A stretch of 55,658 bases of DNA from a virus (taxonomy: Duplodnaviria > Caudoviricetes), in IMG/VR virus record IMGVR_UViG_3300025687_000056, positions 1 to 55,658 of that record. One strand, written 5' to 3'. Shown here piece by piece: positions 28,116 to 50,153 of the stretch. The position numbers and the translations under genes are program-made. Numbering within the stretch: position 1 is the first letter of the stretch; each line of letters begins with the position of its first letter. The notes beneath the pieces are model-generated. The model worked only from the letters and a program-made list of their open reading frames with translations. It searched no databases and was not told the DNA's origin.

Positions 28116-28138
28116 TTAGCGATAAATATTATTATTTT

Positions 28139-31056: not shown

Positions 31057-31066
31057 GGTTTTTTAT

Positions 31067-31738
31067 TCAACGATTATCAATATGGATTATAACTTGATTA
31101 TAATATTCTATAAAATGTTCATTCCACAAATCCCATTTAATACCTTGACCATCAACTGAAAATAAATCATGGTTTGGGAATAATTTTAAATATATATCCC
31201 TAAACTCTCTAAATTGTTCTTTTTGTTTTGGAGTTTCTAAATGCCATTCACCTACTATTTTTCTAATATTTTCTTTTATCCACCAAATATTTTCTCTATT
31301 GAATATTTCATACTCACCTCCCTCACAATCTGTTTTTAAAAAATCAATGCTGGAAATGTTATATTCATCAATAAAAGTTTTAAATCTTATACTTTCAACT
31401 GTTTCAATTTTATTAACAGAACCATATACTTCAAATTCATCATACCCATCTATATTAGATATACCTTTAGGTATTATTGTATAATTTAAACCATTAAGAT
31501 TATTTTTTAAAGATGTTAATTCTTCTTTACTAGGTTCAAAACAGTAAACATGTTTTGGGTTTTTTTCTTTAATTACAAAAGGAAAAGGACCATTGCTAGC
31601 TCCAAAGTCAACAACAATATCATTTTCTTCAACTTCAAAAAGTCTAGTGTATAAATTATAGTTTGAAAATTCTTTAATAATTTGTTCTTTGTACCAATCA
31701 TTGGCGGTACCCCAATCAAAAGTTGTAAAATCTATCAT
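31067..31738 (-). CDS. FkbM family SAM-dependent methyltransferase
   Basis: VVDFGASNG, CFEP, IDFLKTDCEGGEY, GEWH. Confidence 0.9.
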   Translation of the reverse strand: MIDFTTFDWGTANDWYKEQIIKEFSNYNLYTRLFEVEENDIVVDFGASNGPFPFVIKEKNPKHVYCFEPSKEELTSLKNNLNGLNYTIIPKGISNIDGYDEFEVYGSVNKIETVESIRFKTFIDEYNISSIDFLKTDCEGGEYEIFNRENIWWIKENIRKIVGEWHLETPKQKEQFREFRDIYLKLFPNHDLFSVDGQGIKWDLWNEHFIEYYNQVIIHIDNR

Positions 31739-34017: not shown

Positions 34018-34558
34018 TTATAAATTTATCAATAAAACTTTCTATATTATTTGACCACATTATCATAGCATTATCTTTAATTTTTTGTTCATCCCAGTTC
34101 CACCAAGAAATTAATAATAATTTTTTAATTTGTTCTTCTGTAAATCTATATTTTACAATCTTGCCTGGGTTTCCTGCTATAATAGCATATGGGGGAACAT
34201 CTTTAGTTACTGTTGATCCAGCTGCTATAATGGAACCATTTGAAATTTTAACACCTGACATTATAGTTGATTTAGCACCAATCCAAACATCATTTTCAAT
34301 TATAATGTTTCCTTTACAAGTTGGATGTCCCATATCCATATGCATTTGAGCAATTTCAGGAGTAACAGGTCCCCATAATTGAGAAGATGTAGTTATCCAA
34401 TCAGATCTATGGTTAGCATGAAGAAAAAAGTTACAATCTCTTCCAATTGAATTATATTTACCTAAAATTATTTTATAATCATCACTCCATGATATAATAT
34501 TAACATTACGATCAAAGTACGTACCTATATCTGATATCCATAAATGTATATTTTCCAT
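34010..34558 (-). CDS. hexapeptide-repeat (LbH) O-acetyltransferase, CatB/Vat-like
   Basis: IGKY-like N part, IENDVWIG, IAAGSTVTKDVPPYAIIAGNPG..VKYRF, WWNW. Confidence 0.88.
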   Translation of the reverse strand: MENIHLWISDIGTYFDRNVNIISWSDDYKIILGKYNSIGRDCNFFLHANHRSDWITTSSQLWGPVTPEIAQMHMDMGHPTCKGNIIIENDVWIGAKSTIMSGVKISNGSIIAAGSTVTKDVPPYAIIAGNPGKIVKYRFTEEQIKKLLLISWWNWDEQKIKDNAMIMWSNNIESFIDKFING

Positions 34559-34564
34559 AATATT

Positions 34565-35353
34565 TTATGTTTTATGAAGTTTAAATTCATCATCATAAGA
34601 AATCCAATAAGTATAATTATTAGATATTAAGGATAAAATAGATCTAAATAAATATTTTTCATTCCAATCAAAAAAGATCCACACATCTTGAGGGGACTCA
34701 GTTAAAGCAAAATCAACAATATATTCATTTCTGACATCATATATATCATATCCTAAATTTACAATTTCATGAGTAAAATCAATTTGAACTTGTTCAATAT
34801 CTTTATAATTATTACTTAAAACATGAGGTAATGAACCTAACTTATTATAAACTTCATTTAATACTTTAGTTGAAGATATTCCGGTGGTGTGTCCTAAATG
34901 TTTTTTGTTATTACACCAACCATTAGCTTCTCTAACAACCATTCCAAAATAACCACAATTTGGAGAAGTTAAAAATTTATTTTTAAGATATATGTCCCAA
35001 TTATCCTCAACAAAAAAATAATCATCTTCATTAAAAATAAAATAATCATATTTACTTCTATGTTTTTCAAATAATTCTGAAAAGGCAGCAAAACTCATTC
35101 CTATATTATTTCTAAAATTTATCTCAATTTCAGTACCGTTAATAAATTTAGGTACTATTTTAAAGATTTCAGAGACATATTCATAATCTTCTTCTCTAAT
35201 ATTAAAAGTAAAAATAACTTTTGATAAAGAATTTTTTATTTTATATAAATATTCTATTTGTTTTTTAAGCAAAAAAAGTTTATCATTAGTATATTCAGGA
35301 AGTTGTTTACGTCTTTCACCTAAATAAAAGTTAATAATATAACAGGTTTTCAT
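34565..35353 (-). CDS. putative GT-A fold glycosyltransferase
   Basis: RNNIGMSF...YDYFIFNEDDY motif; first gene of the glycan operon. Confidence 0.6.
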   Translation of the reverse strand: MKTCYIINFYLGERRKQLPEYTNDKLFLLKKQIEYLYKIKNSLSKVIFTFNIREEDYEYVSEIFKIVPKFINGTEIEINFRNNIGMSFAAFSELFEKHRSKYDYFIFNEDDYFFVEDNWDIYLKNKFLTSPNCGYFGMVVREANGWCNNKKHLGHTTGISSTKVLNEVYNKLGSLPHVLSNNYKDIEQVQIDFTHEIVNLGYDIYDVRNEYIVDFALTESPQDVWIFFDWNEKYLFRSILSLISNNYTYWISYDDEFKLHKT

Positions 35354-35381
35354 TTTTAAAAATATAGGATTTATAACTATT

Positions 35382-35413
35382 CTAATATAATAAAACTATT
35401 TTAAAAAACCAAA
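35382..35413 (-). promoter_or_regulatory. class I promoter driving the glycosylation island
   Basis: TTTG-N20-TATATTAG, with the same spacing as the replication-module promoters. Confidence 0.65.
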
Positions 35414-35415
35414 TT

Positions 35416-35613
35416 TTATTGTGGGATTCCTACTTTATCTTGAAAATACTGTTGTAAGAAAGTTTGAGTGTAAAAATAATATCTTGGATTAACTCCACTT
35501 AATCTATATCGAGAACCTACTTCTTTACATTTATTTAAAATAGTTTCCTCTAAAGTAGATGAAGGTGTATAACCTAAAAATTGTCTTGTTGATATAAAAG
35601 TTTCAGTCGGCAT
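35416..35613 (-). CDS. small hypothetical protein
   Basis: 65-aa ORF tightly packed after the putative adhesin. Confidence 0.6.
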   Translation of the reverse strand: MPTETFISTRQFLGYTPSSTLEETILNKCKEVGSRYRLSGVNPRYYFYTQTFLQQYFQDKVGIPQ

Positions 35614-35614
35614 A

Positions 35615-36292
35615 TTAATAAACAGTTACTACTACACTTAATCCAGTTGCTGCTCCAAAATTAGCAACAGCCGCTGCTCCATAAGTTGTCCAGTCAAATA
35701 AATTACTACCTCCTCCAATACCAGCACCCCCAACATAATTTGTTCCATTTATATCTATATCACATGATCCTCCTCCAAATCCTGGATCCATATTAACATC
35801 TATATACCAATAACCTTGAGCTATAATAGGGGTACTATTTTGAGATATATCTGTAGGTCCATAAGAAGTACCTGTTGGTACACCTCCTGAGTTTCCAGCT
35901 AAATAAAGATAAGTTCCTGAATTATCATAAAATGATAAGGTACAGTCTTGTACATCATTATTAAGTGGAGGTGGAGGTGGAGGAGGTGGAGTTAAATTAT
36001 TTATTACAGTTAATTGTACTTGATAAGTACTTTGGTCATAAAAATAAGTTAAATTAGCGAAATCTTCTACTCTAAAAGGTCCTGAGGTACTAACTGAAAG
36101 ACCATATATTCTATTTAATCCTACATTGGCACTTTGGCCCCATCCATTATAAGAGATAGTATTATCTCCATTAGGTCCTTGAAAATAACTATAAGAGGCT
36201 AGATCTTTAAAACTAACATTTGTACCTGTACCTCCATTAGCTTCATTGTAGATATCTCCATTTATTTTAATATTTGAAGAAGGTACAGCCAC
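35615..36292 (-). CDS. putative fibre-tip adhesin (gp38-like arrangement) with a poly-proline linker
   Basis: GTG start. [15 protein letters not shown]...VSFKDL...PFRVEDF resembles small adhesins encoded after S74-containing fibres. Pro8 tract at 35966-35989; Gly/aromatic-rich C-terminus. Confidence 0.55.
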
Positions 36293-36294
36293 TG

Positions 36295-36639
36295 TTATGT
36301 AGTTATATTAGTAATAGTAAAAGTAGTTCCAGGTGATAAAGCTTCTAATTGATTTACTACTTCTGATGTTACCCAATATAAATACTTATCTGTTACATTT
36401 GTTCCAAAAGTATCAATAGGAGAAGATCCTGTTATATAAAAACCTATACTAGTTATATGTCTATCAGCTCCACCCATAGTAGGGATAGAACTAGTTACAA
36501 ATGTCATATAATCCTTATACATTCTAGTTTCAACAGGAATTTCATCTCCTGTAGAAGCTAAATAAGGAGTTATTCTAAAATAAGGAGCATCATAACTAGC
36601 GTTATTGTAAGTAAAAGTACCTGTGGCTTGTATTCCCAT
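36295..36639 (-). CDS. fibre-associated hypothetical protein
   Basis: 114-aa T/S-rich ORF starting 2 nt after the giant fibre stop. Confidence 0.65.
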
Positions 36640-36641
36640 AA

Positions 36642-39600
36642 TTATTTATTTTTTAATTTTTCAATTTCTTGTTTTAAGTTATCTATTTGGTCTTGTTGTT
36701 CTTTAATACCTTCAATTAACAGACCTACTAAGTTACCATATGCTACTGATAAATATCCTTCAGAATCAGTTGAAACTGCTTCTGGGGCTACTTTTTCAAT
36801 TTCTTGGGCAATAACACCCATTTTTCTCTTAGTTTGATCAGTATCCGTTTTTAAGAAAGTAACACCTCTAATTTCTTTAATTTTTTCTATAGCATTTTCA
36901 ATTACTTGAATTTCAGTTTTCTTTCTAATATCTGAAGATGCTATGATATCTCCTGAGGCATATATTGAATCACCTGATACATCTAGAGCTACATGTAATG
37001 GATAACTTGGAGCTGCTGTTCCAATACCTACTCTTTTGTCGTTTCTAACTATTAGAATACTAGTTCTAGAATCATCAACAAATTGAGCACAATAAGTAGC
37101 AGAAGTTGTTCCTGTACCTCTAACAGCAAATTCTGTGGATGATGGAGGAGTGTTAGTTGAAACATCATATCCTACAAATACACCTTTATCACGACTAACA
37201 GTATCAGTATCCATTAAGATTGACTTATATGCTCCTGAACCAGCTCCGTAGTTGTAGCCAGCAAATTGAGTATAAGATGTATTACTGTATGGGAAAATAA
37301 ATCCAGAAGCAGAACCGCCTGTTTGACCACATCCAAAGAAGGCATAAGTGTCGTCTCTGAAGTCCATAATTGAGGTTCCATTGCCTGTTTCTACTACAAA
37401 GTTTTTAGTTGCGGATGTAGTACCTGATCCTTTAACACTTAATGTAGCATTAGCTGAAGCTCCGCTTCCTACTTTTAAATAGGATCCATCAAATGTTAAA
37501 TTAGCTTCACCATTAATAGTTGATGTACCAGTAGCTGTTAATACATAATTGTTTGTATTGTTAGATATAGTAGCAGCACCACTTGTACCTGATGAACCTG
37601 ATGTACCTGATGAGCCGCTAGTTCCTGATGAACCACTTGTACCACTAGCTCCAGCAGCACCTGAGGTACCAGATGAACCACTTGATCCTGAGGTACCAGA
37701 TGAACCACTTGATCCTGATGTTCCTGAGCTTCCACTTGTTCCACTTGTTCCAGCAGCTCCTGTTGCACCTGTTGCTCCTGAAGTACCACTTGATCCTGAT
37801 GAACCACTAGTTCCTGAACTTCCGCTTGAACCTGATGTTCCTGAGCTTCCTGAAGTACCAGATGAACCGCTTGTTCCTGAAGTACCTGCTGCACCTGCAG
37901 CACCTGTTGCTCCTGAGGTTCCTGATGAACCTGATGAGCCACTTGTTCCGCTTGAGCCACTTGACCCAGATGTTCCTGAACTGCCTGATGTACCAGATGT
38001 ACCTGATGTTCCTGAAGCACCACTAGCTCCTGAACTTCCACTTGTACCACTTGAACCTGAAGAGCCTGAAGTTCCTGAAGAACCTGAAGAACCTGAAGTT
38101 CCGCTTGAACCTGAAGTTCCGCTTGAACCTGATGTTCCGCTTGAACCTGATGTTCCTGAAGCACCTGGAGAACCAGTAGCTCCTGATGTACCTGAAGAGC
38201 CTGAGCTTCCACTAGTTCCTGAAGAACCTGAAGAGCCACTTGTTCCGCTTGAACCAGAGGTACCTGAAGAACCAGAGGTACCTGATGCGCCTGGAGAACC
38301 AGTTGCTCCTGAAGTACCTGAACTTCCTGATGAGCCACTTGTTCCGCTTGATCCTGATGAACCTGATGTTCCTGAACTTCCGCTTGTTCCTGATGACCCT
38401 GAAGTACCACTAGTACCTGGAGTACCCGGGGAACCAGTTGCTCCAGATGTTCCGCTTGAACCTGAAGAACCGCTTGTTCCACTTGATCCTGATGAGCCGC
38501 TTGTTCCTGAAGAACCTGATGTTCCACTACTTCCGCTTGTTCCTGAAGTACCAGGTGTTCCTGGAGAACCAGTAGCGCCTGATGTTCCTGATGAACCTGA
38601 TGAACCACTAGTTCCGCTTGAACCAGATGAGCCTGATGTTCCTGAAGAGCCTGATGTTCCTGAAGAGCCTGATGTACCGCTTGTACCTGCTGCTCCTGTA
38701 GCACCTGATGTACCTGAAGTACCATTAACACCACTTATACCTGAAGTACCAGATGATCCAGATGATCCAGATGTTCCAGATGAGCCACTAGAACCTGAAG
38801 TTCCTGATGAACCTGATGTTCCTGAACTTCCGCTTGTTCCGCTTGAGCCTGAGGTACCACTTGTACCAGCAGCTCCTGTAGCACCTGATGTTCCACTTGA
38901 ACCTGACGAACCACTAGTTCCACTTGAACCTGAGCTTCCGCTTGTTCCTGATGAACCGCTAGTTCCTGAAGAACCTGATGTTCCAGATGAACCACTTGTT
39001 CCTGATGAACCTGATGAGCCTGAAGTTCCTGATGAGCCGGATGAACCTGAAGTACCTGAACTACCACTAGTTCCTGATGAACCACTAGTACCTGAGTTAC
39101 CTGATGTTCCACTTGATCCACTTGAACCTGAAGTACCTGATGAGCCTGAAGAACCTGATGTTCCAGATGAGCCGCTTGTTCCTGATGAGCCTGATGTACC
39201 TGATGATCCTGAACTACCACTAGTCCCACTTGAACCTGAAGAGCCTGAAGTTCCTGATGATCCAGATGTTCCAGATGAACCTGAACTTCCTGATGTCCCA
39301 GATGAACCTGAACTTCCTGATGTTCCACTTGAGCCTGAAGTTCCAGAAGAACCTGATGTACCGCTTGTACCTGCTGCTCCTGTAGCACCTGATGTACCTG
39401 AGGAACCAGATGAGCCGCTTGTTCCACTAGAACCTGAGCTTCCACTTGTTCCACTTGAACCTGATGTTCCTGAACTACCGCTTGTTCCTGAGCTTCCTGA
39501 ACTACCTGAAGTTCCTGATGAGCCTGATGAACCTGAAGTACCTGAACTACCACTTGTGCCTGAAGAACCGCTTGTTCCTGATGAACCACTAGTTCCATTA

Positions 39601-42600
39601 ACACCACTTATACCTGAGGTACCACTGCTTCCTGATGAGCCAGAAGTACCTGATGAGCCACTAGAACCTGAAGTTCCAGAGCTTCCGCTTGTTCCTGATG
39701 AACCGCTAGTTCCTGATGATCCTGAGCTACCTGATGTACCACTTGATCCTGAAGAGCCTGATGTACCTGATGAACCAGAAGTTCCAGATGTTCCCGATGA
39801 ACCTGAACTACCAGATGTTCCAGAAGAACCTGAAGAACCTGATGTTCCACTTGAGCCTGATGTTCCTGAAGAGCCTGATGTTCCAGATGAACCACTTGAT
39901 CCAGAAGTTCCGCTTGAACCAGATGAACCAGAAGTACCTGATGAGCCACTTGTTCCTGATGAACCTGAAGTGCCACTTGAACCGCTTGTTCCAGATGAGC
40001 CAGATGATCCTGAAGTACCTGAAGAACCTGAGCTTCCTGATGTTCCTGAAGAACCACTAGTACCTGATGAACCAGAAGTACCTGATGAACCACTTGAACC
40101 ACTTGTTCCACTTGAACCACTTGAACCTGATGTTCCTGAACTGCCGCTAGTTCCACTTGAACCTGATGTTCCTGAAGAACCTGAAGTACCACTACTTCCG
40201 GATGAACCAGAAGTACCTGAACTACCTGATGAACCTGAAGTACCAGATGAGCCTGATGTACCTGAAGAACCACTTGTTCCACTCGAACCAGATGATCCTG
40301 AAGTTCCTGAAAAACCACTTGAGCCTGATGTTCCTGAAGAACCTGAAGTGCCGCTTGAACCAGAAGTTCCGCTTGAACCACTTGTTCCATTAACACCTGA
40401 TATACCTGAGGTACCAGAGCTACCACTTGAACCACTTGTACCTGATGAACCACTTGAGCCTGATGTTCCAGAGCTTCCACTTGTGCCTGAAGAACCACTT
40501 GTTCCTGATGAACCACTAGTTCCTGATGATCCTGAACTACCGCTAGTTCCGCTTGAACCTGAAGAACCTGAGGTGCCAGACGAGCCTGAACTACCTGATG
40601 TACCAGAAGAACCGCTTGTTCCTGATGAGCCTGATGTTCCAGATGAACCACTTGAACCGCTTGTTCCAGATGAGCCAGATGATCCTGAAGTACCTGAGCT
40701 GCCTGAAGTACCAGATGAACCACTTGTTCCACTTGAACCGCTTGTTCCACTTGAACCACTAGAGCCGCTTGTACCTGATGAACCGCTTGAACCTGATGTT
40801 CCACTAGAACCTGAAGTACCAGATGAGCCTGAAGTACCACTACTTCCTGATGAACCAGAAGTGCCTGAGCTACCTGAAGAACCTGATGTTCCAGATGAAC
40901 CTGAAGTTCCACTTGAACCGCTTGTGCCGCTTGAACCAGATGATCCTGAAGTTCCTGAAGAACCACTTGATCCACTTGTTCCGCTTGAACCTGATGTACC
41001 ACTAGAACCTGATGTTCCGTTTACACCACTTATACCTGAAGTACCACTTGATCCACTTGAACCACTAGTACCTGATGAACCTGATGAGCCAGAAGTTCCT
41101 GAAGAACCTGAAGTTCCTGATGAGCCACTTGTCCCAGAGCTTCCGCTAGTTCCAGAAGAACCAGAAGAACCGCTTGTTCCACTTGAACCAGAAGATCCAG
41201 AAGTTCCGCTTGAACCACTTGTTCCGCTTGAACCAGATGTTCCTGATGAACCGCTTGAGCCTGATGTTCCACTTGAGCCTGAACTACCTGATGTACCAGA
41301 AGAACCACTTGAACCTGAAGTACCAGAACTACCTGATGTTCCACTTGAACCTGAACTTCCGCTTGTTCCGGAAGAGCCTGAGCTACCTGAAGTACCTGAG
41401 CTACCTGAGGTTCCAGATGAACCGCTTGTACCACTTGAACCTGAGCTACCTGAAGTACCACTACTTCCTGATGAACCAGAAGTACCTGATGAGCCACTTG
41501 TTCCTGATGAACCTGAAGTGCCACTTGAACCACTAGTTCCACTTGAACCGCTTGAACCTGATGTACCACTAGAACCTGAAGAACCGGATGTTCCGCTAGA
41601 TCCTGATGTTCCAGAACTACCGCTAGTTCCTGAAGAACCGCTAGTTCCATTTACACCGCTTATACCTGATGTTCCTGATGAACCTGAGCTTCCGCTTGTT
41701 CCAGAAGAACCTGAACTACCTGAAGTTCCTGAAGAACCTGAAGTGCCACTTGAACCGGATGTTCCTGATGAGCCACTTGAACCTGATGTTCCACTTGAAC
41801 CTGATGAACCTGAAGTACCTGATGAGCCACTTGTTCCTGATGAGCCTGATGAACCGGATGTTCCTGAGCTACCTGAAGAGCCACTTGTACCAGAAGAGCC
41901 TGATGTTCCACTTGAACCAGATGATCCAGAAGTTCCACTTGAACCACTTGAACCTGAAGTACCAGATGAACCACTAGTACCTGATGAACCAGAAGTTCCT
42001 GATGAGCCACTACTACCTGAAGTACCAGATGAGCCACTACTTCCTGATGTTCCTGAACTACCACTTGTTCCTGATGAACCACTAGTACCTGAACTACCGC
42101 TTGTTCCTGAAGAGCCACTTGAACCACTAGTTCCTGATGAACCGGAACTACCTGAGGTACCTGATGAGCCACTTGTTCCGCTTGAACCTGATGTTCCTGA
42201 TGAACCAGATGAACCAGATGTTCCTGAGCTTCCTGAAGAGCCGCTTGTACCTGATGATCCTGAAGTTCCGCTTGAACCACTAGTTCCATTTACACCACTT
42301 ATACCTGATGTACCAGATGATCCTGAAGAACCGCTAGTACCTGATGAACCTGAAGAACCTGATGTTCCTGATGAGCCAGATGTTCCTGATGAGCCAGATG
42401 TTCCTGAGCTACCTGATGTACCTGAACTGCCTGATGAACCGCTAGTACCACTTGATCCTGAAGAACCGGATGTTCCAGATGAGCCAGAAGTACCTGATGA
42501 GCCAGATGTTCCAGATGAACCACTAGAACCTGATGTTCCTGAAGAACCAGAGCTACCTGATGTTCCTGAAGAACCTGAACTACCGCTAGTTCCTGAAGAA

Positions 42601-45600
42601 CCGCTAGTTCCAGATGAACCTGATGAACCAGATGTTCCGCTACTTCCAGAAGAACCAGAAGTACCACTTGAACCTGAAGTTCCTGAGCTTCCTGAAGTTC
42701 CAGATGAACCGGATGAACCACTAGTTCCGCTTGAACCTGATGAACCAGATGTTCCACTAGAACCTGATGTTCCAGATGAACCACTTGTTCCGCTTGAACC
42801 ACTAGTTCCAGATGAACCACTTGATCCTGAAGTTCCTGATGAACCGCTTGAACCACTAGTTCCGCTTGAACCTGATGTACCACTAGAACCTGAAGTTCCT
42901 GAAGAACCACTTGTTCCATTAACACCACTTATACCTGAAGTACCGCTACTACCACTTGAGCCGCTTGTACCTGATGAGCCTGATGAACCACTTGTTCCTG
43001 AAGAACCACTTGAACCACTTGTGCCTGATGAACCAGAGGTTCCGCTTGAACCTGAAGTACCAGAACTACCTGAAGTACCACTTGAACCTGAGCTACCACT
43101 AGTTCCTGATGAACCAGAGCTGCCTGAAGTTCCTGAACTACCTGAAGTACCTGATGAACCACTTGTACCTGAGCTTCCTGAACTACCTGAAGTACCACTA
43201 CTTCCTGATGAACCTGAAGTACCAGATGAACCACTTGTACCACTTGAGCCTGAAGTTCCTGATGAACCAGATGAACCGCTAGTACCAGATGAACCGGATG
43301 AACCACTAGTTCCGCTTGAACCTGAAGTTCCGCTTGAACCACTAGTACCTGAACTACCTGAAGTGCCAGATGAACCAGATGAACCTGATGTTCCGCTTGA
43401 GCCTGAGCTGCCTGATGTTCCGCTTGAACCTGAAGTACCTGAAGAACCACTTGTTCCTGAGCTGCCTGAACTACCTGAAGTTCCTGATGAGCCACTTGAA
43501 CCTGATGTACCTGAACTACCACTTGTTCCTGATGAACCACTAGTTCCATTCACACCACTTATACCTGAAGTACCTGAGCTGCCTGAAGAGCCGCTTGTAC
43601 CTGATGAACCACTAGAACCTGATGTTCCAGAGCTTCCACTTGTTCCTGATGAGCCTGAGGTTCCGCTTGAACCACTTGTTCCTGAAGAACCACTTGAACC
43701 ACTTGTACCTGATGAACCACTTGATCCAGATGTTCCTGATGAACCTGAAGTGCCAGAACTACCTGATGTTCCGCTTGAACCTGATGAGCCACTTGTTCCT
43801 GAAGAACCGCTAGAGCCACTTGTTCCACTAGAACCTGATGTTCCAGAGCTTCCGCTTGTTCCTGATGAACCTGAGCTGCCTGATGTTCCAGATGAGCCTG
43901 AGCTGCCTGATGTTCCTGATGATCCAGATGTTCCACTAGATCCAGATGTTCCAGATGAACCTGATGAACCTGAAGTTCCTGAGGATCCAGATGAACCTGA
44001 TGTACCACTAGATCCGCTTGTTCCGCTTGATCCTGAAGTTCCTGATGAACCAGATGTTCCTGATGAACCGGATGAGCCTGAAGTACCTGATGAACCTGAA
44101 CTACCACTAGTTCCTGATGAACCTGAAGTACCTGAACTACCACTAGTTCCTGAAGAGCCTGATGTACCATTTACACCAGATATACCTGAAGTACCTGATG
44201 AGCCTGAAGAGCCGCTTGTACCTGATGAGCCTGATGAGCCTGAAGTTCCTGAACTACCACTTGTTCCAGATGAACCAGAGGTTCCAGATGAACCAGATGA
44301 GCCTGATGTTCCAGATGAACCTGAGCTTCCTGAAGTACCAGATGAACCAGATGAACCTGAGGTTCCAGATGATCCACTAGTACCACTAGAACCTGAAGTT
44401 CCTGATGAGCCACTTGAACCACTTGTACCTGATGAACCACTTGATCCTGATGTTCCTGAAGAACCAGATGTTCCTGAAGAACCGCTTGTTCCGCTTGAAC
44501 CTGAAGTACCACTTGAACCTGATGAGCCTGATGTTCCACTTGAACCTGATGAGCCTGATGTTCCACTAGATCCACTAGTTCCACTGGACCCGCTAGTTCC
44601 GCTAGAACCTGAAGAGCCACTTGTACCTGATGAACCTGAGCTACCTGATGTACCACTTGATCCTGAAGTGCCTGATGAACCACTAGTTCCGCTTGATCCG
44701 CTAGAACCTGAAGTACCTGAGGAGCCTGATGAGCCTGATGTACCAGATGAACCGCTTGTACCACTTGAACCAGAAGTTCCACTTGAACCACTTGTTCCAT
44801 TAACACCGCTTATACCTGAAGTACCACTTGAACCAGATGATCCACTAGTACCAGATGAGCCGGATGTACCTGAACTTCCGCTTGTACCGCTTGATCCTGA
44901 AGAACCTGATGTTCCACTTGAACCTGAAGAACCAGAAGTACCTGAACTTCCAGAAGTTCCACTTGAACCAGAAGTTCCGCTTGATCCTGATGAACCTGAT
45001 GTACCTGATGAGCCTGAGCTGCCTGAGGTACCACTAGAACCAGATGTTCCTGAAGAACCTGAAGTTCCAGAAGAACCGCTTGTTCCGCTTGATCCAGATG
45101 AACCGCTTGTTCCGCTTGATCCTGAAGAGCCACTTGTGCCTGAGCTACCTGATGTACCAGAAGAACCTGATGTTCCTGATGAACCGCTTGAGCCACTAGT
45201 TCCTGATGAACCAGAGCTTCCTGATGTACCTGATGAACCTGAAGTTCCAGAAGAACCGCTTGTTCCATTTACACCACTTATACCTGATGTACCTGATGAT
45301 CCTGATGAACCACTAGTACCTGATGAGCCTGATGAACCTGAAGTACCACTAGAACCAGATGTTCCAGATGAACCTGAAGTACCTGAAGAACCTGAAGAAC
45401 CAGATGTTCCTGATGAACCGCTTGATCCAGATGTTCCTGAAGAACCTGAAGTTCCAGAAGAACCGCTTGTTCCGCTTGAACCACTAGATCCTGAAGTACC
45501 ACTTGATCCTGAAGAACCGCTTGTGCCTGAAGAACCTGAAGTTCCAGATGAGCCTGATGTTCCTGAAGAACCTGAAGTTCCGCTTGATCCGCTTGATCCA

Positions 45601-48600
45601 GATGTTCCTGAAGAACCTGATGAACCAGATGTTCCTGAAGAACCTGATGAACCACTTGTTCCTGATTCTCCTGAACTACCTGAACTACCTGAGGTGCCTG
45701 ATGAACCAGAGGTTCCACTAGAACCACTAGTACCATTTACACCACTTATACCTGATGTACCACTGCTTCCTGATGAGCCAGAAGTACCTGATGAACCACT
45801 TGATCCGCTTGTTCCGCTTGATCCTGAAGTTCCGCTTGAGCCACTTGTACCTGAAGAGCCAGAGGTTCCACTAGAACCACTTGATCCAGAAGTTCCAGAA
45901 GAACCTGATGAACCTGAAGTACCAGATGAACCGCTTGTTCCACTTGAACCTGAAGTTCCGCTTGAGCCTGAGCTACCACTAGTTCCTGATGATCCTGATG
46001 AACCACTTGTTCCGCTTGAGCCACTTGATCCAGATGTTCCTGAAGAGCCACTTGTACCTGATGATCCAGATGTTCCACTGCTTCCTGATGAGCCTGATGT
46101 TCCTGAAGAACCTGAACTACCTGAAGTTCCTGATGAACCACTAGTCCCTGATTCTCCTGAACTTCCACTGGAGCCTGAAGTACCAGATGAACCACTTGTT
46201 CCATTAACACCACTTATACCTGAGCTTCCGCTTGTTCCTGATGAACCAGATGAACCACTTGTTCCTGATGAACCGCTTGAACCTGAAGTTCCGCTTGAGC
46301 CACTTGTACCTGATGAGCCTGAACTACCTGAGGTGCCTGAAGAACCACTTGAGCCTGATGTACCTGATGAACCTGAAGTACCGGATGAACCGCTTGTTCC
46401 GCTTGAACCAGATGAGCCACTTGTTCCTGATGAACCTGAGCTACCAGATGTTCCTGATGAACCGCTTGTTCCGCTTGAACCTGAAGTTCCAGAAGAGCCA
46501 CTTGTTCCACTTGAACCTGAGCTACCTGAAGTGCCTGATGAACCGCTTGAGCCAGATGTTCCTGAAGAACCACTTGTACCTGATGAACCTGAGCTACCAG
46601 ATGTTCCTGAAGAACCACTTGAACCGCTAGTTCCTGATGAACCGCTTGTTCCGCTTGAGCCAGATGTACCATTTACACCTGATATACCTGAAGTACCAGA
46701 GCTGCCTGAAGAGCCGCTTGTACCTGATGAGCCTGATGAGCCTGAAGTTCCTGAGCTTCCACTGGAACCTGAAGTGCCAGATGAGCCGCTTGAGCCTGAT
46801 GTACCGCTTGAACCAGATGTTCCTGAAGAGCCGCTTGAGCCAGATGTTCCTGATGAACCACTTGAGCCAGATGTTCCACTTGATCCTGAAGAACCAGAAG
46901 TACCTGATTCTCCTGAACTTCCGCTTGAACCACTAGTTCCTGATGAACCAGAACTACCTGAGGTACCAGATGAACCTGAAGTACCATTAACACCTGATAT
47001 GCCTGAGGTACCTGAACTGCCGCTTGAGCCTGATGTACCACTTGAGCCTGAAGAACCAGAAGTGCCTGATTCTCCTGATGAACCACTTGAGCCAGAGGTT
47101 CCTGATGAACCACTTGAGCCTGATGTACCACTAGAACCTGATGTTCCATTTACACCACTTATACCTGAAGTACCTGAGCTGCCTGAAGAGCCACTTGTAC
47201 CTGATGAGCCTGAAGTTCCTGATGAACCTGATGTACCACTAGATCCGCTTGAACCTGATGTACCGCTTGAACCTGATGAGCCTGATGTTCCTGATGAACC
47301 ACTAGTGCCACTAGAACCTGAAGTACCAGAGGATCCTGAAGAACCTGAAGTGCCTGATGAACCTGATGAGCCTGAAGTGCCAGAAGAACCGCTTGTTCCG
47401 CTTGAGCCTGAACTTCCTGATGTGCCACTTGAACCGGAACTGCCTGATGTTCCTGATGAACCACTTGTTCCGCTTGAGCCTGATGTACCACTTGAACCGG
47501 AACTACCTGAGGTTCCTGATGAACCGCTTGAGCCTGAAGTTCCACTAGAACCAGAAGTTCCAGATGAACCACTAGTTCCTGATGAACCAGATGAACCAGA
47601 AGTACCAGATGAGCCTGAACTACCTGATGTTCCTGATGAACCAGAAGTACCAGATGAACCAGAAGTTCCATCTATACCACTAGTTCCAGAACTACCTGAG
47701 CTTCCGCTTGTTCCTGATGAACCGCTTGAACCTGAAGTACCAGAACTACCTGAAGTGCCTGATGAACCTGAAGTGCCAGAACTACCTGAACTTCCGCTAG
47801 TTCCTGAAGAACCTGATGAACCGCTAGTACCAGAACTACCTGATGTTCCGTCTATACCTGAAGTACCAGATGAGCCTGAACTACCTGAAGTTCCAGATGA
47901 GCCGCTTGAGCCACTTGTTCCTGAACTTCCACTTGTACCAGAACTACCTGATGTTCCTGATGAGCCTGATGTTCCACTTGAACCACTTGAGCCTGATGTA
48001 CCACTTGATCCTGATGAGCCAGAAGTACCATCTATACCTGAAGTGCCAGACGATCCTGATGAACCACTAGTACCTGATGAACCTGATGAACCACTTGTTC
48101 CGCTTGAACCTGAGCTTCCGCTTGTTCCTGATGAGCCACTTGAACCAGATGTTCCTGAAGAACCGCTTGTTCCGCTTGAGCCTGAACTGCCTGAAGTACC
48201 AGATGAACCTGATGAACCACTTGTTCCGCTTGAACCAGAGGTTCCTGAAGAGCCACTTGTTCCACTAGAGCCTGAGCTTCCGCTTGTTCCTGATGAACCG
48301 CTTGAACCTGAAGTTCCTGATGAGCCTGATGTACCAGATGAGCCTGATGTACCACTTGAGCCTGATGAGCCAGAGGTACCATCTATACCTGAAGTACCAG
48401 AAGAACCACTTGAACCTGAGGTACCTGATGAACCTGAACTTCCGCTAGTTCCTGAACTACCTGAAGTGCCAGATGAGCCACTAGTTCCGCTTGATCCTGA
48501 AGAACCAGATGTACCTGAAGATCCTGATGAACCTGAAGTTCCAGATGAACCACTAGTTCCACTTGAACCAGAGGTACCACTTGAGCCTGAACTTCCACTT

Positions 48601-49190
48601 GAACCAGATGAGCCTGAGGTTCCTGATGAGCCTGAGGTTCCTGATGAACCTGAGGTTCCACTAGAGCCAGAACTACCTGAAGTTCCGCTAGAGCCGGAAC
48701 TACCTGAAGTTCCACTAGAGCCAGAACTACCTGAAGTTCCTGATGAACCACTAGTTCCACTTGAGCCTGATGAGCCAGATGTTCCTGAACTACCTGAAGT
48801 TCCTGATGTTCCAGATGAAGGCATATCAGAATATTCTACTTCTCCAGTAGCAGGTATATAAGTTACAACATATGAAGGACTAGCTTCATATGGTAAAGTT
48901 TGAATTATAATAGGTTGGGAAGAACCAGAGATTACTAATGAGCCGGTAATTACTGCTGAACCAGAAAATGGGAAACCTATACCTGAACCTGATATAAAGA
49001 CTGTTACTCCTTCTGTTGAAGAAATAATATCTGTATAAGCATCAACTGAGCCTGTAAAATTAATAAAAGGAGCACTAGATTTAACTAGTGACCCAGTATA
49101 ATATATATCAATAGTACCATTACCACTTCCTGCTGTATCCGCTTGGAAAACCCCTACTGGTACCTGATCAAGGAATCTAACTTTAGCCAT
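36642..49190 (-). CDS. giant Gly-X-Ser repeat fibre protein (4182 aa) with C-terminal peptidase S74 intramolecular chaperone
   Basis: About 126-aa N-terminal domain; Gly-X-Y repeat at aa 127-3871; beta-rich tip (TINGEANLTFDG, VGIGTAAP); SDIRKK...GVIAQE...YLSVAY...LIEGIKE plus coiled coil (36642-36935). Class II motif at 49202-49209. Confidence 0.9.
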   Translation of the reverse strand: MAKVRFLDQVPVGVFQADTAGSGNGTIDIYYTGSLVKSSAPFINFTGSVDAYTDIISSTEGVTVFISGSGIGFPFSGSAVITGSLVISGSSQPIIIQTLPYEASPSYVVTYIPATGEVEYSDMPSSGTSGTSGSSGTSGSSGSSGTSGSSGTSGSSGSSGTSGSSGSSGTSGSSGSSGTSGSSGTSGSSGTSGSSGSSGSSGSSGTSGSSGTSGSSGTSGSSGSSGTSGSSGSSGTSGSSGTSGSSGTSGSSGSSGTSGSSGSSGTSGIDGTSGSSGSSGTSGSSGTSGSSGTSGSSGSSGTSGSSGSSGTSGSSGTSGSSGTSGSSGSSGTSGSSGSSGTSGSSGTSGSSGSSGTSGSSGSSGTSGSSGSSGTSGSSGSSGTSGIDGTSGSSGSSGTSGSSGSSGTSGSSGTSGSSGTSGSSGTSGSSGSSGTSGSSGSSGTSGIDGTSGSSGTSGSSGSSGTSGSSGSSGTSGSSGTSGSSGTSGSSGSSGTSGSSGSSGTSGIDGTSGSSGTSGSSGTSGSSGSSGTSGSSGSSGTSGSSGTSGSSGTSGSSGSSGTSGSSGSSGTSGSSGTSGSSGTSGSSGSSGTSGSSGSSGTSGSSGTSGSSGSSGTSGSSGSSGTSGSSGTSGSSGTSGSSGSSGTSGSSGSSGTSGSSGTSGSSGTSGSSGSSGTSGISGVNGTSGSSGTSGSSGSSGTSGSSGSSGESGTSGSSGSSGTSGSSGSSGTSGISGVNGTSGSSGTSGSSGSSGTSGSSGSSGESGTSGSSGSSGTSGSSGSSGTSGSSGSSGTSGSSGTSGSSGSSGTSGSSGSSGTSGSSGSSGTSGSSGSSGTSGISGVNGTSGSSGTSGSSGTSGSSGSSGTSGSSGSSGTSGSSGTSGSSGSSGTSGSSGSSGTSGSSGTSGSSGTSGSSGTSGSSGSSGTSGSSGSSGTSGSSGTSGSSGTSGSSGSSGTSGSSGSSGTSGSSGTSGSSGSSGTSGSSGSSGTSGSSGISGVNGTSGSSGTSGSSGSSGESGTSGSSGTSGSSGSSGTSGSSGSSGTSGSSGTSGSSGTSGSSGSSGTSGSSGSSGTSGSSGSSGTSGSSGTSGSSGTSGSSGSSGTSGSSGSSGTSGSSGTSGSSGTSGSSGTSGSSGSSGTSGSSGSSGTSGISGVNGTSGSSGTSGSSGTSGSSGSSGESGTSGSSGSSGTSGSSGSSGTSGSSGSSGTSGSSGTSGSSGTSGSSGTSGSSGSSGTSGSSGSSGTSGSSGTSGSSGTSGSSGSSGTSGSSGSSGTSGSSGTSGSSGTSGSSGSSGTSGSSGSSGTSGISGVNGTSGSSGTSGSSGTSGSSGSSGTSGSSGSSGTSGSSGTSGSSGTSGSSGSSGTSGSSGSSGTSGSSGTSGSSGTSGSSGTSGSSGSSGTSGSSGSSGTSGSSGTSGSSGTSGSSGSSGTSGSSGSSGTSGSSGTSGSSGTSGSSGSSGTSGISGVNGTSGSSGTSGSSGTSGSSGTSGSSGSSGTSGSSGSSGTSGSSGTSGSSGTSGSSGSSGTSGSSGSSGTSGSSGTSGSSGTSGSSGSSGTSGSSGSSGTSGSSGTSGSSGTSGSSGTSGSSGSSGTSGSSGSSGTSGSSGTSGSSGTSGSSGSSGTSGSSGSSGTSGSSGSSGTSGSSGTSGSSGTSGSSGSSGTSGSSGSSGTSGISGVNGTSGSSGTSGSSGTSGSSGTSGSSGSSGTSGSSGSSGTSGSSGTSGSSGTSGSSGTSGSSGSSGTSGSSGSSGTSGSSGTSGSSGTSGSSGSSGTSGSSGSSGTSGSSGTSGSSGTSGSSGSSGTSGSSGSSGTSGSSGTSGSSGTSGSSGSSGTSGSSGSSGTSGSSGTSGSSGTSGSSGTSGSSGSSGTSGSSGSSGTSGISGVNGTSGSSGTSGSSGTSGSSGSSGTSGSSGSSGTSGSSGTSGSSGTSGSSGSSGTSGSSGSSGTSGSSGTSGSSGTSGSSGTSGSSGSSGTSGSSGSSGTSGSSGTSGSSGTSGSSGSSGTSGSSGSSGTSGSSGTSGSSGTSGSSGSSGTSGSSGSSGTSGSSGTSGSSGTSGSSGTSGSSGSSGTSGSSGSSGTSGSSGSSGTSGISGVNGTSGSSGTSGSSGTSGSSGTSGSSGSSGTSGSSGSSGTSGSSGTSGSSGTSGSSGTSGSSGSSGTSGSSGSSGTSGSSGTSGSSGTSGSSGSSGTSGSSGSSGTSGSSGTSGSSGSSGTSGSSGSSGTSGSSGSSGTSGSSGTSGSSGTSGSSGSSGTSGSSGSSGTSGSSGTSGSSGTSGSSGTSGSSGSSGTSGSSGSSGTSGISGVNGTSGSSGTSGSSGTSGSSGSSGTSGSSGSSGTSGSSGTSGSSGTSGSSGSSGTSGSSGSSGTSGSSGTSGSSGTSGSSGTSGSSGSSGTSGSSGSSGTSGSSGTSGSSGTSGSSGSSGTSGSSGSSGTSGSSGTSGSSGSSGTSGSSGSSGTSGSSGTSGSSGSSGTSGSSGSSGTSGSSGTSGSSGTSGSSGSSGTSGSSGSSGTSGISGVNGTSGSSGTSGSSGTSGSSGTSGSSGSSGTSGSSGSSGTSGSSGTSGSSGTSGSSGTSGSSGSSGTSGSSGSSGTSGSSGTSGSSGTSGSSGSSGTSGSSGSSGTSGSSGTSGSSGSSGTSGSSGSSGTSGSSGSSGTSGSSGTSGSSGTSGSSGSSGTSGSSGSSGTSGSSGTSGSSGTSGSSGTSGSSGSSGTSGSSGSSGTSGISGVNGTSGSSGTSGSSGTSGSSGSSGTSGSSGSSGTSGSSGTSGSSGTSGSSGSSGTSGSSGSSGTSGSSGTSGSSGTSGSSGSSGTSGSSGSSGTSGSSGTSGSSGTSGSSGTSGSSGSSGTSGSSGSSGTSGSSGTSGSSGTSGSSGSSGTSGSSGSSGTSGSSGSSGTSGSSGTSGSSGTSGSSGTSGSSGSSGTSGSSGSSGTSGISGVNGTSGSSGTSGSSGTSGSSGTSGSSGFSGTSGSSGSSGTSGSSGTSGSSGTSGSSGSSGTSGSSGSSGTSGSSGTSGSSGTSGSSGTSGSSGSSGTSGSSGSSGTSGSSGTSGSSGTSGSSGSSGTSGSSGSSGTSGSSGTSGSSGTSGSSGTSGSSGSSGTSGSSGSSGTSGSSGTSGSSGTSGSSGSSGTSGSSGSSGTSGTSGSSGTSGSSGSSGTSGSSGSSGTSGSSGTSGSSGTSGSSGSSGTSGSSGSSGTSGISGVNGTSGSSGTSGSSGTSGSSGTSGSSGSSGTSGSSGSSGTSGSSGTSGSSGTSGSSGSSGTSGSSGSSGTSGATGAAGTSGTSGSSGTSGSSGTSGSSGSSGTSGSSGSSGTSGSSGTSGSSGSSGTSGSSGSSGTSGSSGTSGSSGTSGSSGSSGTSGSSGSSGTSGNSGTSGSSGTSGSSGTSGSSGSSGTSGSSGSSGTSGSSGTSGSSGTSGSSGTSGSSGSSGTSGSSGSSGTSGATGAAGTSGTSGSSGTSGSSGTSGSSGTSGSSGSSGTSGSSGSSGTSGISGVNGTSGTSGATGAAGTSGTSGSSGTSGSSGTSGSSGSSGTSGSSGSSGTSGATGSPGTPGTSGTSGSSGTSGSSGTSGSSGSSGTSGSSGSSGTSGATGSPGTPGTSGTSGSSGTSGSSGTSGSSGSSGTSGSSGSSGTSGATGSPGASGTSGSSGTSGSSGTSGSSGSSGTSGSSGSSGTSGATGSPGASGTSGSSGTSGSSGTSGSSGTSGSSGSSGTSGSSGSSGTSGSSGASGASGTSGTSGTSGSSGTSGSSGSSGTSGSSGSSGTSGATGAAGAAGTSGTSGSSGTSGSSGTSGSSGSSGTSGSSGSSGTSGATGATGAAGTSGTSGSSGTSGSSGSSGTSGSSGSSGTSGAAGASGTSGSSGTSGSSGTSGSSGTSGAATISNNTNNYVLTATGTSTINGEANLTFDGSYLKVGSGASANATLSVKGSGTTSATKNFVVETGNGTSIMDFRDDTYAFFGCGQTGGSASGFIFPYSNTSYTQFAGYNYGAGSGAYKSILMDTDTVSRDKGVFVGYDVSTNTPPSSTEFAVRGTGTTSATYCAQFVDDSRTSILIVRNDKRVGIGTAAPSYPLHVALDVSGDSIYASGDIIASSDIRKKTEIQVIENAIEKIKEIRGVTFLKTDTDQTKRKMGVIAQEIEKVAPEAVSTDSEGYLSVAYGNLVGLLIEGIKEQQDQIDNLKQEIEKLKNK
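37578..48812 (-). repeat. 9-nt-period coding tandem repeat (~1248 Gly-X-Y triplets, mainly GSS/GTS)
   Basis: Gly at every third residue between aa 127 and 3871 (3744 residues apart, divisible by 3); no register break seen; synonymous codons vary widely. Confidence 0.95.
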
Positions 49191-49214: not shown

Positions 49215-50153
49215 TTATCCGACTGAGGTTGATCTATTTGAAGCTCTTTTAGCGTTTGGATCTTCAGTTACAATTCTTCCACCTTCTGTATTTCCATCAA
49301 AAATATCTTGATTATTTGTAGCTTCAATTGAAAATATTACTTTTGCTCCTTCAGAGTATTTTTTAGTTGCGTTCATGTCTTTTTGAATTGTATCTGGTAT
49401 TATATATCCGTTTAATGTTAAATCAAATGTACTTCTAACAATTCGTTCACTACTTTCTGCTAATTCTGTTTGAAAACCAAAAGAATTTATCATAGCTTTA
49501 AATTTAAAACGTTCTGGATCTCCCCAGTATGAGTCAGAAGCATATTCTATAGCTTCAATTATTTTATTTTGTTGTTCTACATAGTATGTAAAAACTATAA
49601 ATGAGTAAGTGACAGTTAAATAATCAGGCATCACTACAGCATAATATGTTTTAGATGGTGCTCTGTTATTTAATACTTTAAAATTATCATATATTTCTTT
49701 AGGGTTGTATTTTTTAGTAAATACACCATAATTGTAAGGTGAGTTAGCATCTAATTTATTAGCAATGCTCCTATTTTTTTCAATGTTTGTTCTTTTAAAC
49801 ATAATTAAAGGAGCCATTAAAGCACCCTTTAAATCTCTTAAGTAACCATCTTTTTGATAGGATTTCCATTTTTCAGGATCTCCATATAACACAGGAACCT
49901 CTACTCTTTGGCCATTTTGAACTGTAAAAGGCTTAATAACATTTCTCATATAATAGAAAATAGCCTCATCAATGTCTTGTATGCCTATACTAAAGGGCTT
50001 TGTGTTATCACCTTTAAATGAGGTTTGTAACGCTCTATTTTTTGTATCTAACGATAAGTTAGGATTGCCTTCTTGAGGAAAAGAAGGAACATGTTGAGCT
50101 ATACTTAACTCTTTTTGGGTTGCTGGTATTGGTTTTCTTCCGTTTATTGGCAT
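49215..50153 (-). CDS. tail terminator / sheath stabilizer (T4 gp15-like)
   Basis: VPVLYGDPEKW and P.Y.TVTYSF.V.T...EQ.NKIIE pattern; follows the two neck genes. Confidence 0.7.
   Translation of the reverse strand: MPINGRKPIPATQKELSIAQHVPSFPQEGNPNLSLDTKNRALQTSFKGDNTKPFSIGIQDIDEAIFYYMRNVIKPFTVQNGQRVEVPVLYGDPEKWKSYQKDGYLRDLKGALMAPLIMFKRTNIEKNRSIANKLDANSPYNYGVFTKKYNPKEIYDNFKVLNNRAPSKTYYAVVMPDYLTVTYSFIVFTYYVEQQNKIIEAIEYASDSYWGDPERFKFKAMINSFGFQTELAESSERIVRSTFDLTLNGYIIPDTIQKDMNATKKYSEGAKVIFSIEATNNQDIFDGNTEGGRIVTEDPNAKRASNRSTSVG

Follow-up and report, generated by a model that had tools for sequence, protein, structure and literature searches.

Fibers built on collagen-like Gly-X-Y runs have been described in phages since 1998 (PMC1079782, in part; citations so marked refer to an excerpt of the source). 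In the described cases, among them orf028 of cyanophage P-SSM2 and the EPclA-type proteins of Escherichia coli O157 prophages, the runs lie in phage fiber genes, often have Pro, Ser, or Thr at X and Y, and are thought to belong to trimeric proteins (PMC1079782, citing Smith et al. 1998, and PMC3368898, both in part). Prokaryotic collagen-like chains reach about 2,000 triplets, with interruptions, and a fibrillar collagen chain has up to about 330 (PMC11923368, in part). Here, we analyze a fiber gene of an uncultivated tailed phage, IMG/VR record IMGVR_UViG_3300025687_000056 (Duplodnaviria; Caudoviricetes), which was taken in its complete length of 55,658 bp and is called the window below. Whereas the described phage collagens contain Pro and charged residues and extend over tens to a few hundred triplets, this fiber has 1,249 uninterrupted triplets made almost only of Gly, Ser, and Thr, and it is accompanied by an island of putative glycosylation genes with a protein-serine glycosyltransferase, a feature that is not in the descriptions of phage collagen-like fibers.

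A hydroxy amino acid at Y replaces hydroxyproline (Hyp) in Bacillus BclA, which has GPT repeats with O-glycosylated Thr, and in the cuticle collagen of the vent worm Riftia, which has galactosyl-Thr at Y; in both, the glycan stabilizes the helix. The window's fiber likewise has a hydroxy amino acid at Y, but X is Ser or Thr instead of Pro, Y is Ser instead of Thr, imino acids are almost absent, and the candidate transferase belongs to another family. Ac-(Gly-Pro-Thr)10 stays a random coil unless each Thr bears β-galactose (PMC11923368, in part). Because glycosylation at Y thus rescues this otherwise unfolded peptide, the presence of a Ser-specific transferase family next to the fiber gene matters.

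The members of that family, TibC and Aah, are encoded beside the genes of the Ser-rich repetitive surface proteins TibA and AIDA-I, an arrangement similar to that in the window. The window's enzyme retains their catalytic and iron-binding residues; it differs in being phage encoded and fused to a glycosyltransferase family 4 (GT4) domain (in one cultured phage also to an FkbM domain), and its presumed substrate is a Gly-X-Ser fiber rather than a β-helical autotransporter. Mycobacteriophages also use their own glycosyltransferases to decorate their structural proteins, namely, the C termini of capsid and tail-tube proteins, and the excerpt of PMC12619734 (citing Freeman et al. 2023) describes no collagen-like substrate or BAHT-type (TibC/Aah-type) enzyme among them. 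With endosialidases, the long tail fibers of T5 and S16, and PDB 6f45, the window's fiber shares a C-terminal S74 domain of about 97 amino acids (aa), whose alignment to 6f45 includes the SSD-R-KK segment; the solved members of this group chaperone triple-β-helix or other β-structured shafts, whereas the shaft here is collagen-like.

Given the fibers known since 1998 and the ~2,000-triplet chains, neither the kind of protein nor its sheer length is unprecedented, although the shaft is ~3.7 times as long as a fibrillar collagen chain. In the literature, subscription journals and supplements aside, we found no uninterrupted, nearly Pro-free and charge-free Gly-X-Ser shaft of such size, no phage-encoded TibC/Aah-type enzyme tied to collagen-like fibers, no paper linking collagen-like tail fibers with a glycosyltransferase, and nothing on Microcystis phage Mel-JY01, the cultured phage mentioned above. 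The shaft also does without the stabilizers that have been proposed as a universal collagen “folding code” (PMC11923368, in part), and its conserved partnership with a TibC/Aah-type serine glycosyltransferase is a further unusual feature. With our confidence evenly divided, we propose that the protein forms a homotrimeric, collagen-like fiber of about 1 µm that is O-glycosylated on Ser.

A fiber gene with an uninterrupted Gly-X-Ser array

The fiber gene (36642..49190, minus strand) starts with ATG, has the orientation of all other genes in the window, and encodes 4,182 aa with a computed mass of 342.8 kDa unmodified. A regular-expression scan of its translation detected a single G-X-Y run of 1,249 triplets (aa 127 to 3873; 37572..48812, minus strand), which comprises 3,747 residues or 11,241 nucleotides (nt) and has Gly in register in 1,249 of 1,249 triplets. 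An initial inspection of the DNA without database searches (the sequence-only reading) had counted ~1,248 uninterrupted triplets from 37578 to 48812; the end proved exact, the start was 6 nt off, and the coding strand needed correction to the minus strand.

GSS (682) and GTS (496) account for most triplets, followed by GIS (16), GVN (16), GAT (10), GAA (8), GAS (5), GID, GES, and GSP (4 each), GTP (2), GFS (1), and GNS (1). All variants listed in the sequence-only reading were found, each with Gly in register, and GAS is additional. Ser occupies Y in 1,205 triplets (96.5%), while X is Ser in 686 (55%) and Thr in 498 (40%), so that Gly, Ser, and Thr make up 97% of the residues. The rest includes 6 Pro, 4 Asp, and 4 Glu; Lys, Arg, His, Gln, Cys, Trp, Tyr, and Met do not occur. 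The earlier description of the array as almost proline free, with Ser nearly always at Y, is therefore accurate. Three 300-aa pieces of the array each match the Pfam Collagen model (PF01391) with 152 to 155 bits against a cutoff of 27.2.

Chance can be dismissed as the origin of this pattern, since no Gly is missed in 1,249 triplets and no stop codon interrupts 12.5 kb of a genome with a GC content of ~31%. The repeat itself has a GC content of 48 to 49%, compared with ~31% in the genome backbone. An open reading frame (ORF) of 3,770 aa on the plus strand (37549..48861) is a mirror of the repeat that results from its composition.

The motif GISGVN recurs as a landmark and defines higher-order units, of which four have 156 aa and five have 210 aa. 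Units of equal length are 85 to 91% identical in protein sequence and only 64 to 67% identical in DNA. At identical residues, the codon is shared in 39 to 42% of cases, compared with a random expectation of 35 to 45% from the repeat's own codon usage, and Ser codons are drawn from both the TCN and the AGY families. Synonymous sites are thus saturated and yet no Gly has been lost, which indicates that selection acts on the protein pattern. Judging from these comparisons, the array is neither an assembly stutter nor a recent DNA expansion.

Along the gene, the GISGVN landmarks mark units of 52, then 70, and then ~90 triplets. Thr at X is spaced in the manner ...2,2,3,3..., with a superperiod of 10 triplets or 30 residues (autocorrelation of 0.385 at lag 10). 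A 30-residue repeat is also a property of the 10/3 collagen helix; we give this coincidence no weight for a helix because a 90-nt duplication unit explains the superperiod equally well.

Terminal domains of the fiber

The first 126 aa (48813..49190, minus strand) constitute a probable virion-attachment domain. The module has no match in Pfam or PHROGs. It is 59 to 99% identical across 19 IMG/VR loci, and in the protein database it heads ~20 to 60 GXS triplets in three proteins (P0013, P0007, and P0009) and non-collagen Ser/Gly-rich shafts in two others (P0010 and P0015). Because it heads such different shafts, the module behaves as a virion-attachment adaptor.

When three copies of the N-terminal module with 60 triplets were modeled together, the ipSAE was 0.49, compared with 0.00 in the best of three controls. 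Of 30 solved pairs, 20 attain this mark, as does 1 of 23 single chains, a calibration that holds only roughly here, as a custom alignment and three copies were used. The runs shared at least 39% of contacts, with a partner pLDDT of at least 43. All confident contacts fall within residues 25 to 126 and none in the GXS residues 127 to 306, so the model is uninformative on the helix; the N-terminal module itself is modeled as an intertwined trimer. An AlphaFold2 monomer of the module, built from a 12-row alignment, had a mean pLDDT of 36.2 and was unusable.

Downstream of the shaft, a tail-fiber-like distal tip (aa 3874 to 4085; 36936..37571, minus strand) precedes the S74 domain. The C-terminal 310 aa match PHROG families of tail fibers and long-tail-fiber distal subunits (best E value, 1e-34), and tblastn also relates the tip to distal tail fibers of Vibrio and Thermus phages. 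The Peptidase_S74 intramolecular chaperone domain (aa 4086 to 4182, 97 aa; 36645..36935, minus strand), already noticed in the sequence-only reading, is supported by PF13884 (55.2 bits against a cutoff of 22; profile positions 1 to 57 of 58) and by PDB 6f45, a long-tail-fiber distal subunit (E value, 2.2e-6). S74 chaperones trimerize and then release themselves. The domain starts with SDIRKK (aa 4086 to 4091), which aligns with SSDRRIKK of 6f45 and fits the S-D-x-R-x-K segment, which we take to be the site of the catalytic Ser...Lys pair of S74.

Relatives of the fiber in IMG/VR

The N-terminal module matched 23 IMG/VR loci, 19 of which open into a GXS array; in the remaining 4, the match is confined to residues 66 to 90 and no array follows. 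Five loci have at least 1,051 triplets and run to the edge of the examined flank. Two of those records extend far enough to contain complete orthologous ORFs, which encode 3,889 aa (1,103 triplets) and 3,937 aa (1,119 triplets). Both of these orthologues (loci L108 and L109) have a 179-aa globular insert after the first 66 to 73 triplets, and past its first 34 residues (junction motif ...VLTATG...NLTFDGS...) their C-terminal domain cannot be aligned to that of the window. On sequence grounds, this looks like modular tip exchange.

The N-terminal module matched no protein of 2,300 to 7,319 aa in the database, which reflects a limit of the database and of gene calling, given the 3,889- and 3,937-aa orthologues in IMG/VR. 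There was also no tblastn match among 50,697 phage records, and by this measure the phage group is uncultured. GTDB genomes yielded only two weak matches, both on 4- to 6-kb contigs of Bacteroidota metagenome-assembled genomes, which may be a faint hint of a Bacteroidota host. One 122-kb IMG/VR contig (locus L010) encodes a second collagen-like protein, of the GPT/GTT/GIQ type and with its own S74 chaperone (L036, positions 3 to 1460), between the giant GXS fiber and a BAHT-like gene; thus, some of these phages have two collagen-like fibers.

A putative glycosylation island with a TibC/Aah-type enzyme

The island is located ~2.6 kb downstream of the fiber gene and comprises five genes (~28.1 to 34.6 kb). 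The central one (31735..34017, minus strand) encodes a 760-aa fusion of a GT4 domain (~aa 100 to 390; PF00534) and a TibC/Aah-type protein-serine O-heptosyltransferase domain (aa 408 to 758; PF01075, TIGR04414, and PDB 4rap). Against TIGR04414, the autotransporter strand-loop-strand O-heptosyltransferase family, the fusion scores 194.1 bits (E value, 3.3e-57; positions 11 to 371 of 374), compared with 23.5 bits for heptosyltransferase I. It aligns over the full-length GT-B core with TibC (PDB 4rap; E value, 1.2e-28).

In TibC, Asp-110 serves as catalytic base, phosphate is held by Thr-226 and Lys-230, Trp-305 binds heptose, Arg-286 reads the adenine of ADP-heptose, Cys-339, Cys-342, Cys-358, and Cys-370 bind iron, and a β-hairpin thumb (Phe-265/Val-266) serves the dodecamer; the enzyme hyperglycosylates Ser and not Thr (PMC4358343, in part). 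We aligned the window's enzyme with that of Mel-JY01 and 78 of 80 viral homologues (n = 80; two homologues truncated at contig ends were dropped). Asp-110, Thr-226, Lys-230, Trp-305, and the four iron-finger Cys residues are invariant in 80 of the 80 phage sequences. Our reading of these alignments is that the fusion is probably active and glycosylates protein Ser, and that it may use a donor other than ADP-heptose.

The other island genes complete a putative glycosylation set. A 612-aa protein (28139..29977, minus strand) combines a sugar-1-phosphate nucleotidyltransferase (PF00483), a HAD phosphatase of the EcbF/BcbF type (PDB 1xpj; TIGR01689, 78 bits, which is under the cutoff), and a C-terminal domain (~aa 345 to 602) that matches only PHROGs 4098 and 24015, both of unknown function. 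Its nucleotidyltransferase part weakly matches the heptose-pathway HddC-type (heptose-1-phosphate guanylyltransferase-type) structures 6jq8 and 5xhw (E value, ~1e-3). An FkbM-family methyltransferase (31067..31738, minus strand) is identified by PF05050 (51 bits) and TIGR01444 (58 bits against a cutoff of 37.7). A hexapeptide-repeat acyl- or acetyltransferase (34010..34558, minus strand) matches PF00132 and PF14602, and its matches to NCBIfam families of sugar and xenobiotic O-acetyltransferases are all under the cutoffs. A 360-aa protein (29974..31056, minus strand) has no family assignment; its Atlas model is similar (TM score, 0.50 to 0.65) to portions of multidomain glycosyltransferases from viruses, some of them in clusters automatically named “Aah/TibC family,” which serves as a lead only.

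Gene order around BAHT-like genes

To describe the gene neighborhood, we took the BAHT-like gene as the reference for the orientation of 80 viral loci and counted same-strand G-X-Y runs of at least 20 triplets on each side of it. With at least 8 kb of flank, such a run is present upstream in 13 of 19 loci and downstream in 0 of 38; with at least 6 kb, the numbers are 15 of 24 and 1 of 42, and with at least 4 kb, 20 of 34 and 1 of 57. Several of the upstream collagen-like proteins end in S74, and among the upstream proteins, that of L046 is closely related to the window's fiber. The autotransporter gene that is expected next to a BAHT gene is absent; a collagen-like gene lies upstream instead (15 of 24 loci).

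The cultured Microcystis phage Mel-JY01 has a GT4-BAHT-FkbM fusion that is 43.8% identical to the window's enzyme over 98% of the query. It is encoded two genes downstream of a GSS/GTS collagen-like gene, in a cluster at a different genome position, by the terminase and head genes. The collagen-like protein has 1,771 aa and 202 G-X-Y triplets, with Ser at Y in 134. In the Mel-JY01 record (PP395634; loci L001, 1 to 3052, and L002, 17739 to 20002), GenBank lists the coding sequences 1-651 and 739-2298, which contain PEVPRVPLVPELP repeats and lie on the strand opposite to the collagen-like gene; the actual frame of the latter stays open where the two ends of the linear record meet.

Proposed structure and its alternatives

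We propose that the fiber gene belongs to a T4-like aquatic myovirus and specifies a virion fiber, most probably one of the tail or one for host recognition. Three chains would be kept in register by the C-terminal S74 chaperone, which would then cleave itself off, and also by the intertwined N-terminal attachment module, while the 1,249 Gly-X-Ser triplets between them would form one continuous collagen-type triple helix with the tail-fiber-type tip at the far end. If the shaft is helical, simple arithmetic (3,747 × 0.286 nm) gives a length of 1.07 µm. Because the usual stabilizers (Pro/Hyp and Lys-Glu/Asp pairs) are lacking, we suggest that O-glycosylation of the near-invariant Y-position Ser would provide both stability and solubility. 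The GT4-TibC/Aah-type fusion would add a sugar to Ser, methyl and acyl decoration would follow, and the adjacent nucleotidyltransferase/phosphatase would supply the donor, a nucleoside diphosphate (NDP)-sugar. In dilute water, the fiber could then serve as a long “fishing line” and extend the radius within which hosts are captured. In its most specific form, i.e., a ~1-µm, nearly Pro-free collagen-type helix without Hyp or salt bridges, O-glycosylated at Y-Ser in each triplet by a viral TibC/Aah-family enzyme with a phage-made donor other than an ADP-sugar, the proposal is tentative, and we would sooner expect some part of it to fail.

A number of observations count against the proposal, with respect to both the enzyme and the helix. 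As to the enzyme, the TIGR04414 score of 194.1 bits is just under the 200-bit equivalog cutoff. The position of Arg-286 is never Arg in the 80 phage sequences (V in 47, S in 14, T in 9, I in 8, and L in 2), and the tip of the TibC thumb is deleted, which appears as a 7-residue gap in a HMMER alignment whose loops may be imprecise. With Arg-286 lost and the thumb tip gone, neither the sugar donor nor the oligomeric state needs to be TibC-like; a donor other than ADP-heptose would fit the phage's own nucleotidyltransferase. The BAHT-like loci are related to each other, so that the neighborhood counts given above are not independent events. In addition, Ser or Thr occupies at least 50% of Y positions in only 6 of the 15 upstream runs (flank of at least 6 kb), the rest being of the GP(I/T/Q) type. 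The link is thus to collagen-like fibers generally and not specifically to Ser-rich ones.

In one alternative, the island has nothing to do with the fiber. It would modify the lipopolysaccharide (LPS), O-antigen, or capsule of the host, or another virion protein, and the fiber would remain unglycosylated. We consider this somewhat unlikely. Where glycosyltransferases occur in the host-recognition regions of aquatic myoviruses, a published interpretation is that they modify the host O-chain (O-antigen) (PMC7029224, in part), the mycobacteriophage glycans mentioned above sit on capsid and tail-tube proteins (PMC12619734, citing Freeman 2023, in part), and in 9 of the 15 upstream runs Ser and Thr are scarce at Y. 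The GC content over the island and three small genes beside it (28000 to 36000) is 23 to 27%, compared with ~31% elsewhere, and the island may therefore be a separately acquired module. On the other side, the closest characterized relatives of the C-terminal half of the fusion are protein-serine glycosyltransferases and not LPS heptosyltransferases, the position of collagen-like genes upstream is strongly asymmetric, and Mel-JY01 retains the pairing in a different part of its genome. A lesson for annotation is that glycosyltransferases called “LPS-type” in the host-recognition regions of phages may in fact modify the virion.

As to the helix, the array has neither the KGE/KGD salt bridges nor the Pro-rich stabilization known for bacterial and viral collagens (PMC11923368, in part); imino acids at X and Y and Lys-Gly-Glu/Asp triplets, the stabilizers known for the collagen family, are not a feature of its sequence. 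The more distant orthologues (L017 to L021; N-terminal module 59 to 66% identical) keep the 3-residue register, but ~12% of their Gly positions are occupied by Gln or, less often, by Arg, Ala, or Ser. The substitutions occur in a conserved context, G[AL]S-Q-TS-G, at intervals of 8 or 10 triplets, and this regular interruption is evidently selected, to judge from the sequences. In a homotrimer, Gln or Arg at Gly would be a repeated disruption of the core, which is awkward for a strict collagen.

A second alternative retains trimerized ends and makes the Gly-X-Ser region nonhelical, as a flexible, heavily O-glycosylated tether of the mucin or bottle-brush type. In a variant of it, the chains may be single strands resembling polyproline II (PPII), as in the antifreeze glycoproteins of fish, where a 3-residue period would place one glycan on each turn. 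The composition of the array (97% Gly, Ser, and Thr, almost no Pro, and no charge pairs) is that of a flexible linker. Ser at X and Y has a low triple-helix propensity in host-guest peptides. The acceptance of Gln or Arg at Gly positions by relatives, the free exchange of collagen-like and non-collagen Ser/Gly-rich shafts behind the same N-terminal module (P0010 and P0015), and the adjoining glycosylation island would all suit a tether. A disordered tether, however, needs neither unbroken Gly over 1,249 triplets nor a difference between X and Y, and both are kept at synonymous saturation. Furthermore, the register of 3 survives the Gln substitutions in the relatives, and the shaft passes the Collagen model and ends in a nucleating trimerizer at its C terminus. 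On balance, we regard the tether as rather unlikely.

In favor of the triple helix are the perfect Gly periodicity despite saturated synonymous change and the unequal usage of X and Y, an asymmetry for which a featureless linker would have no need. Collagen folds in the C-to-N direction (PMC11923368, in part), which fits a C-terminal trimerizer. The sequence-only reading had proposed a glycosylation-dependent triple helix, and this view survives in part: the Collagen model, the trimerizing ends, and the TibC/Aah-type island agree with it, whereas Gln and Arg at Gly positions of the distant orthologues do not.

The most specific form of the proposal, if correct, would reveal a new chemical means of stabilizing collagen and would make the fusion the first BAHT-type enzyme with a demonstrated action on a structural protein of a virus. 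If the shaft is a glycan-stabilized helix, it would provide (i) a testable minimal system, (GTS/GSS)n with one enzyme island, for the requirements of the triple helix and (ii) a way to produce recombinant collagen-like rods that are very long and Pro-free. In dilute waters, a micrometer-long, receptor-tipped fiber would give the phage a severalfold larger diffusive capture radius.

Length of the array at the DNA level

Because the window is a metagenome-derived virus record, its extreme array could in principle be an assembly artifact, either by repeat inflation or as a chimera of co-occurring strains, with a true gene several-fold shorter. In favor of an artifact, many related GXS-coding sequences occur together in the same samples. 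DNA of the fiber region is present in 20 runs from 12 studies, all of them represented by Logan contigs from short k-mers, with no long-read run. In four runs (X1, X2, X7, and X10), the contigs align to the window as short pieces in the repeat with hundreds of spurious joints, and about half of the pieces aligned there fit two places; the unique flanks are present in X1, X2, and X7 with 0 to 2 differences. The summed contig depth in the repeat is 20 to 100 times that of the flanks, the excess coming from related sequences in the same samples. It seems that GSS/GTS-coding arrays of many related phages are abundant in freshwater, lagoon, and marine waters.

The array DNA itself argues for the recorded length. 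Its longest exact direct repeat measures 62 nt, nonunique 31-mers amount to only 5.6%, and k-mers of at least 77 nt are all unique, so that a short-read assembler is able to traverse it. The 12.5-kb reading frame is unbroken. In addition, the complete ORFs with 1,103 and 1,119 triplets come from two other records, and four further loci with at least 1,051 triplets at the edge of the flank (L007, L010, L011/L012, and L015) reach a similar size. An assembly artifact is thus highly improbable, and the length given in the sequence-only reading is supported.

That reading had also offered, as an alternative fold, a polyglycine II (PGII) bundle like that of the snow-flea antifreeze protein, with possible ice binding, which we dismiss as close to negligible: although PGII/PPII geometry could accommodate a 3-residue period of Gly and small residues, the snow-flea bundles are antiparallel and built of short Gly-X-X helices that turns connect, whereas the array has no turn-like element or interruption (its sole landmarks, GISGVN, are 54 to 291 residues or 18 to 97 triplets apart), the ends are trimerizing ones of the fiber type in a tail-fiber slot, and the runs with fiber-region DNA are labeled freshwater, estuary, lagoon, and marine, with nothing specific to ice.

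Genome context of the fiber gene

All genes of the window are on the minus strand. In the order of transcription, the major capsid protein gene, PhoH, a 410-aa head-completion-like gene, and a 312-aa gene precede the fiber gene; three small genes, the glycosylation island, and the sheath, tube, and hub genes follow; and the last part contains a weakly tape-measure-like protein, large ORFs without identification, and replication genes. The capsid protein shares 52.6% identity with its counterpart in Flavobacterium phage immuto and 48% with the one in Mel-JY01. In immuto, annotated tail-fiber genes occupy the slot between the head-completion and sheath genes. The window's fiber is in the same slot, which is therefore the host-recognition slot of a distant T4-like myovirus.

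The 312-aa neighbor upstream of the fiber gene (49215..50153, minus strand) has no match in Pfam or PHROGs. It has an Atlas feature score of 0.97 to viral clusters in which 16 to 19% of members carry PF16724, and it is possibly a T4 gp15-like tail terminator or neck protein, a lead only. The gap between the fiber gene and the island (34565..36639, minus strand) is filled by the three small genes of unknown function, which encode 114, 225, and 262 aa and have no matches in PHROGs, Pfam, or NCBIfam. In the structural module, two large ORFs (14967 to 18569, 1,200 aa, and 20630 to 23776, 1,048 aa) have almost no family match, the latter with no more than a weak tape-measure-like stretch. Elsewhere, the window encodes a ribonucleotide reductase, a DnaB-like helicase, an exonuclease, and a UvsX-like recombinase.

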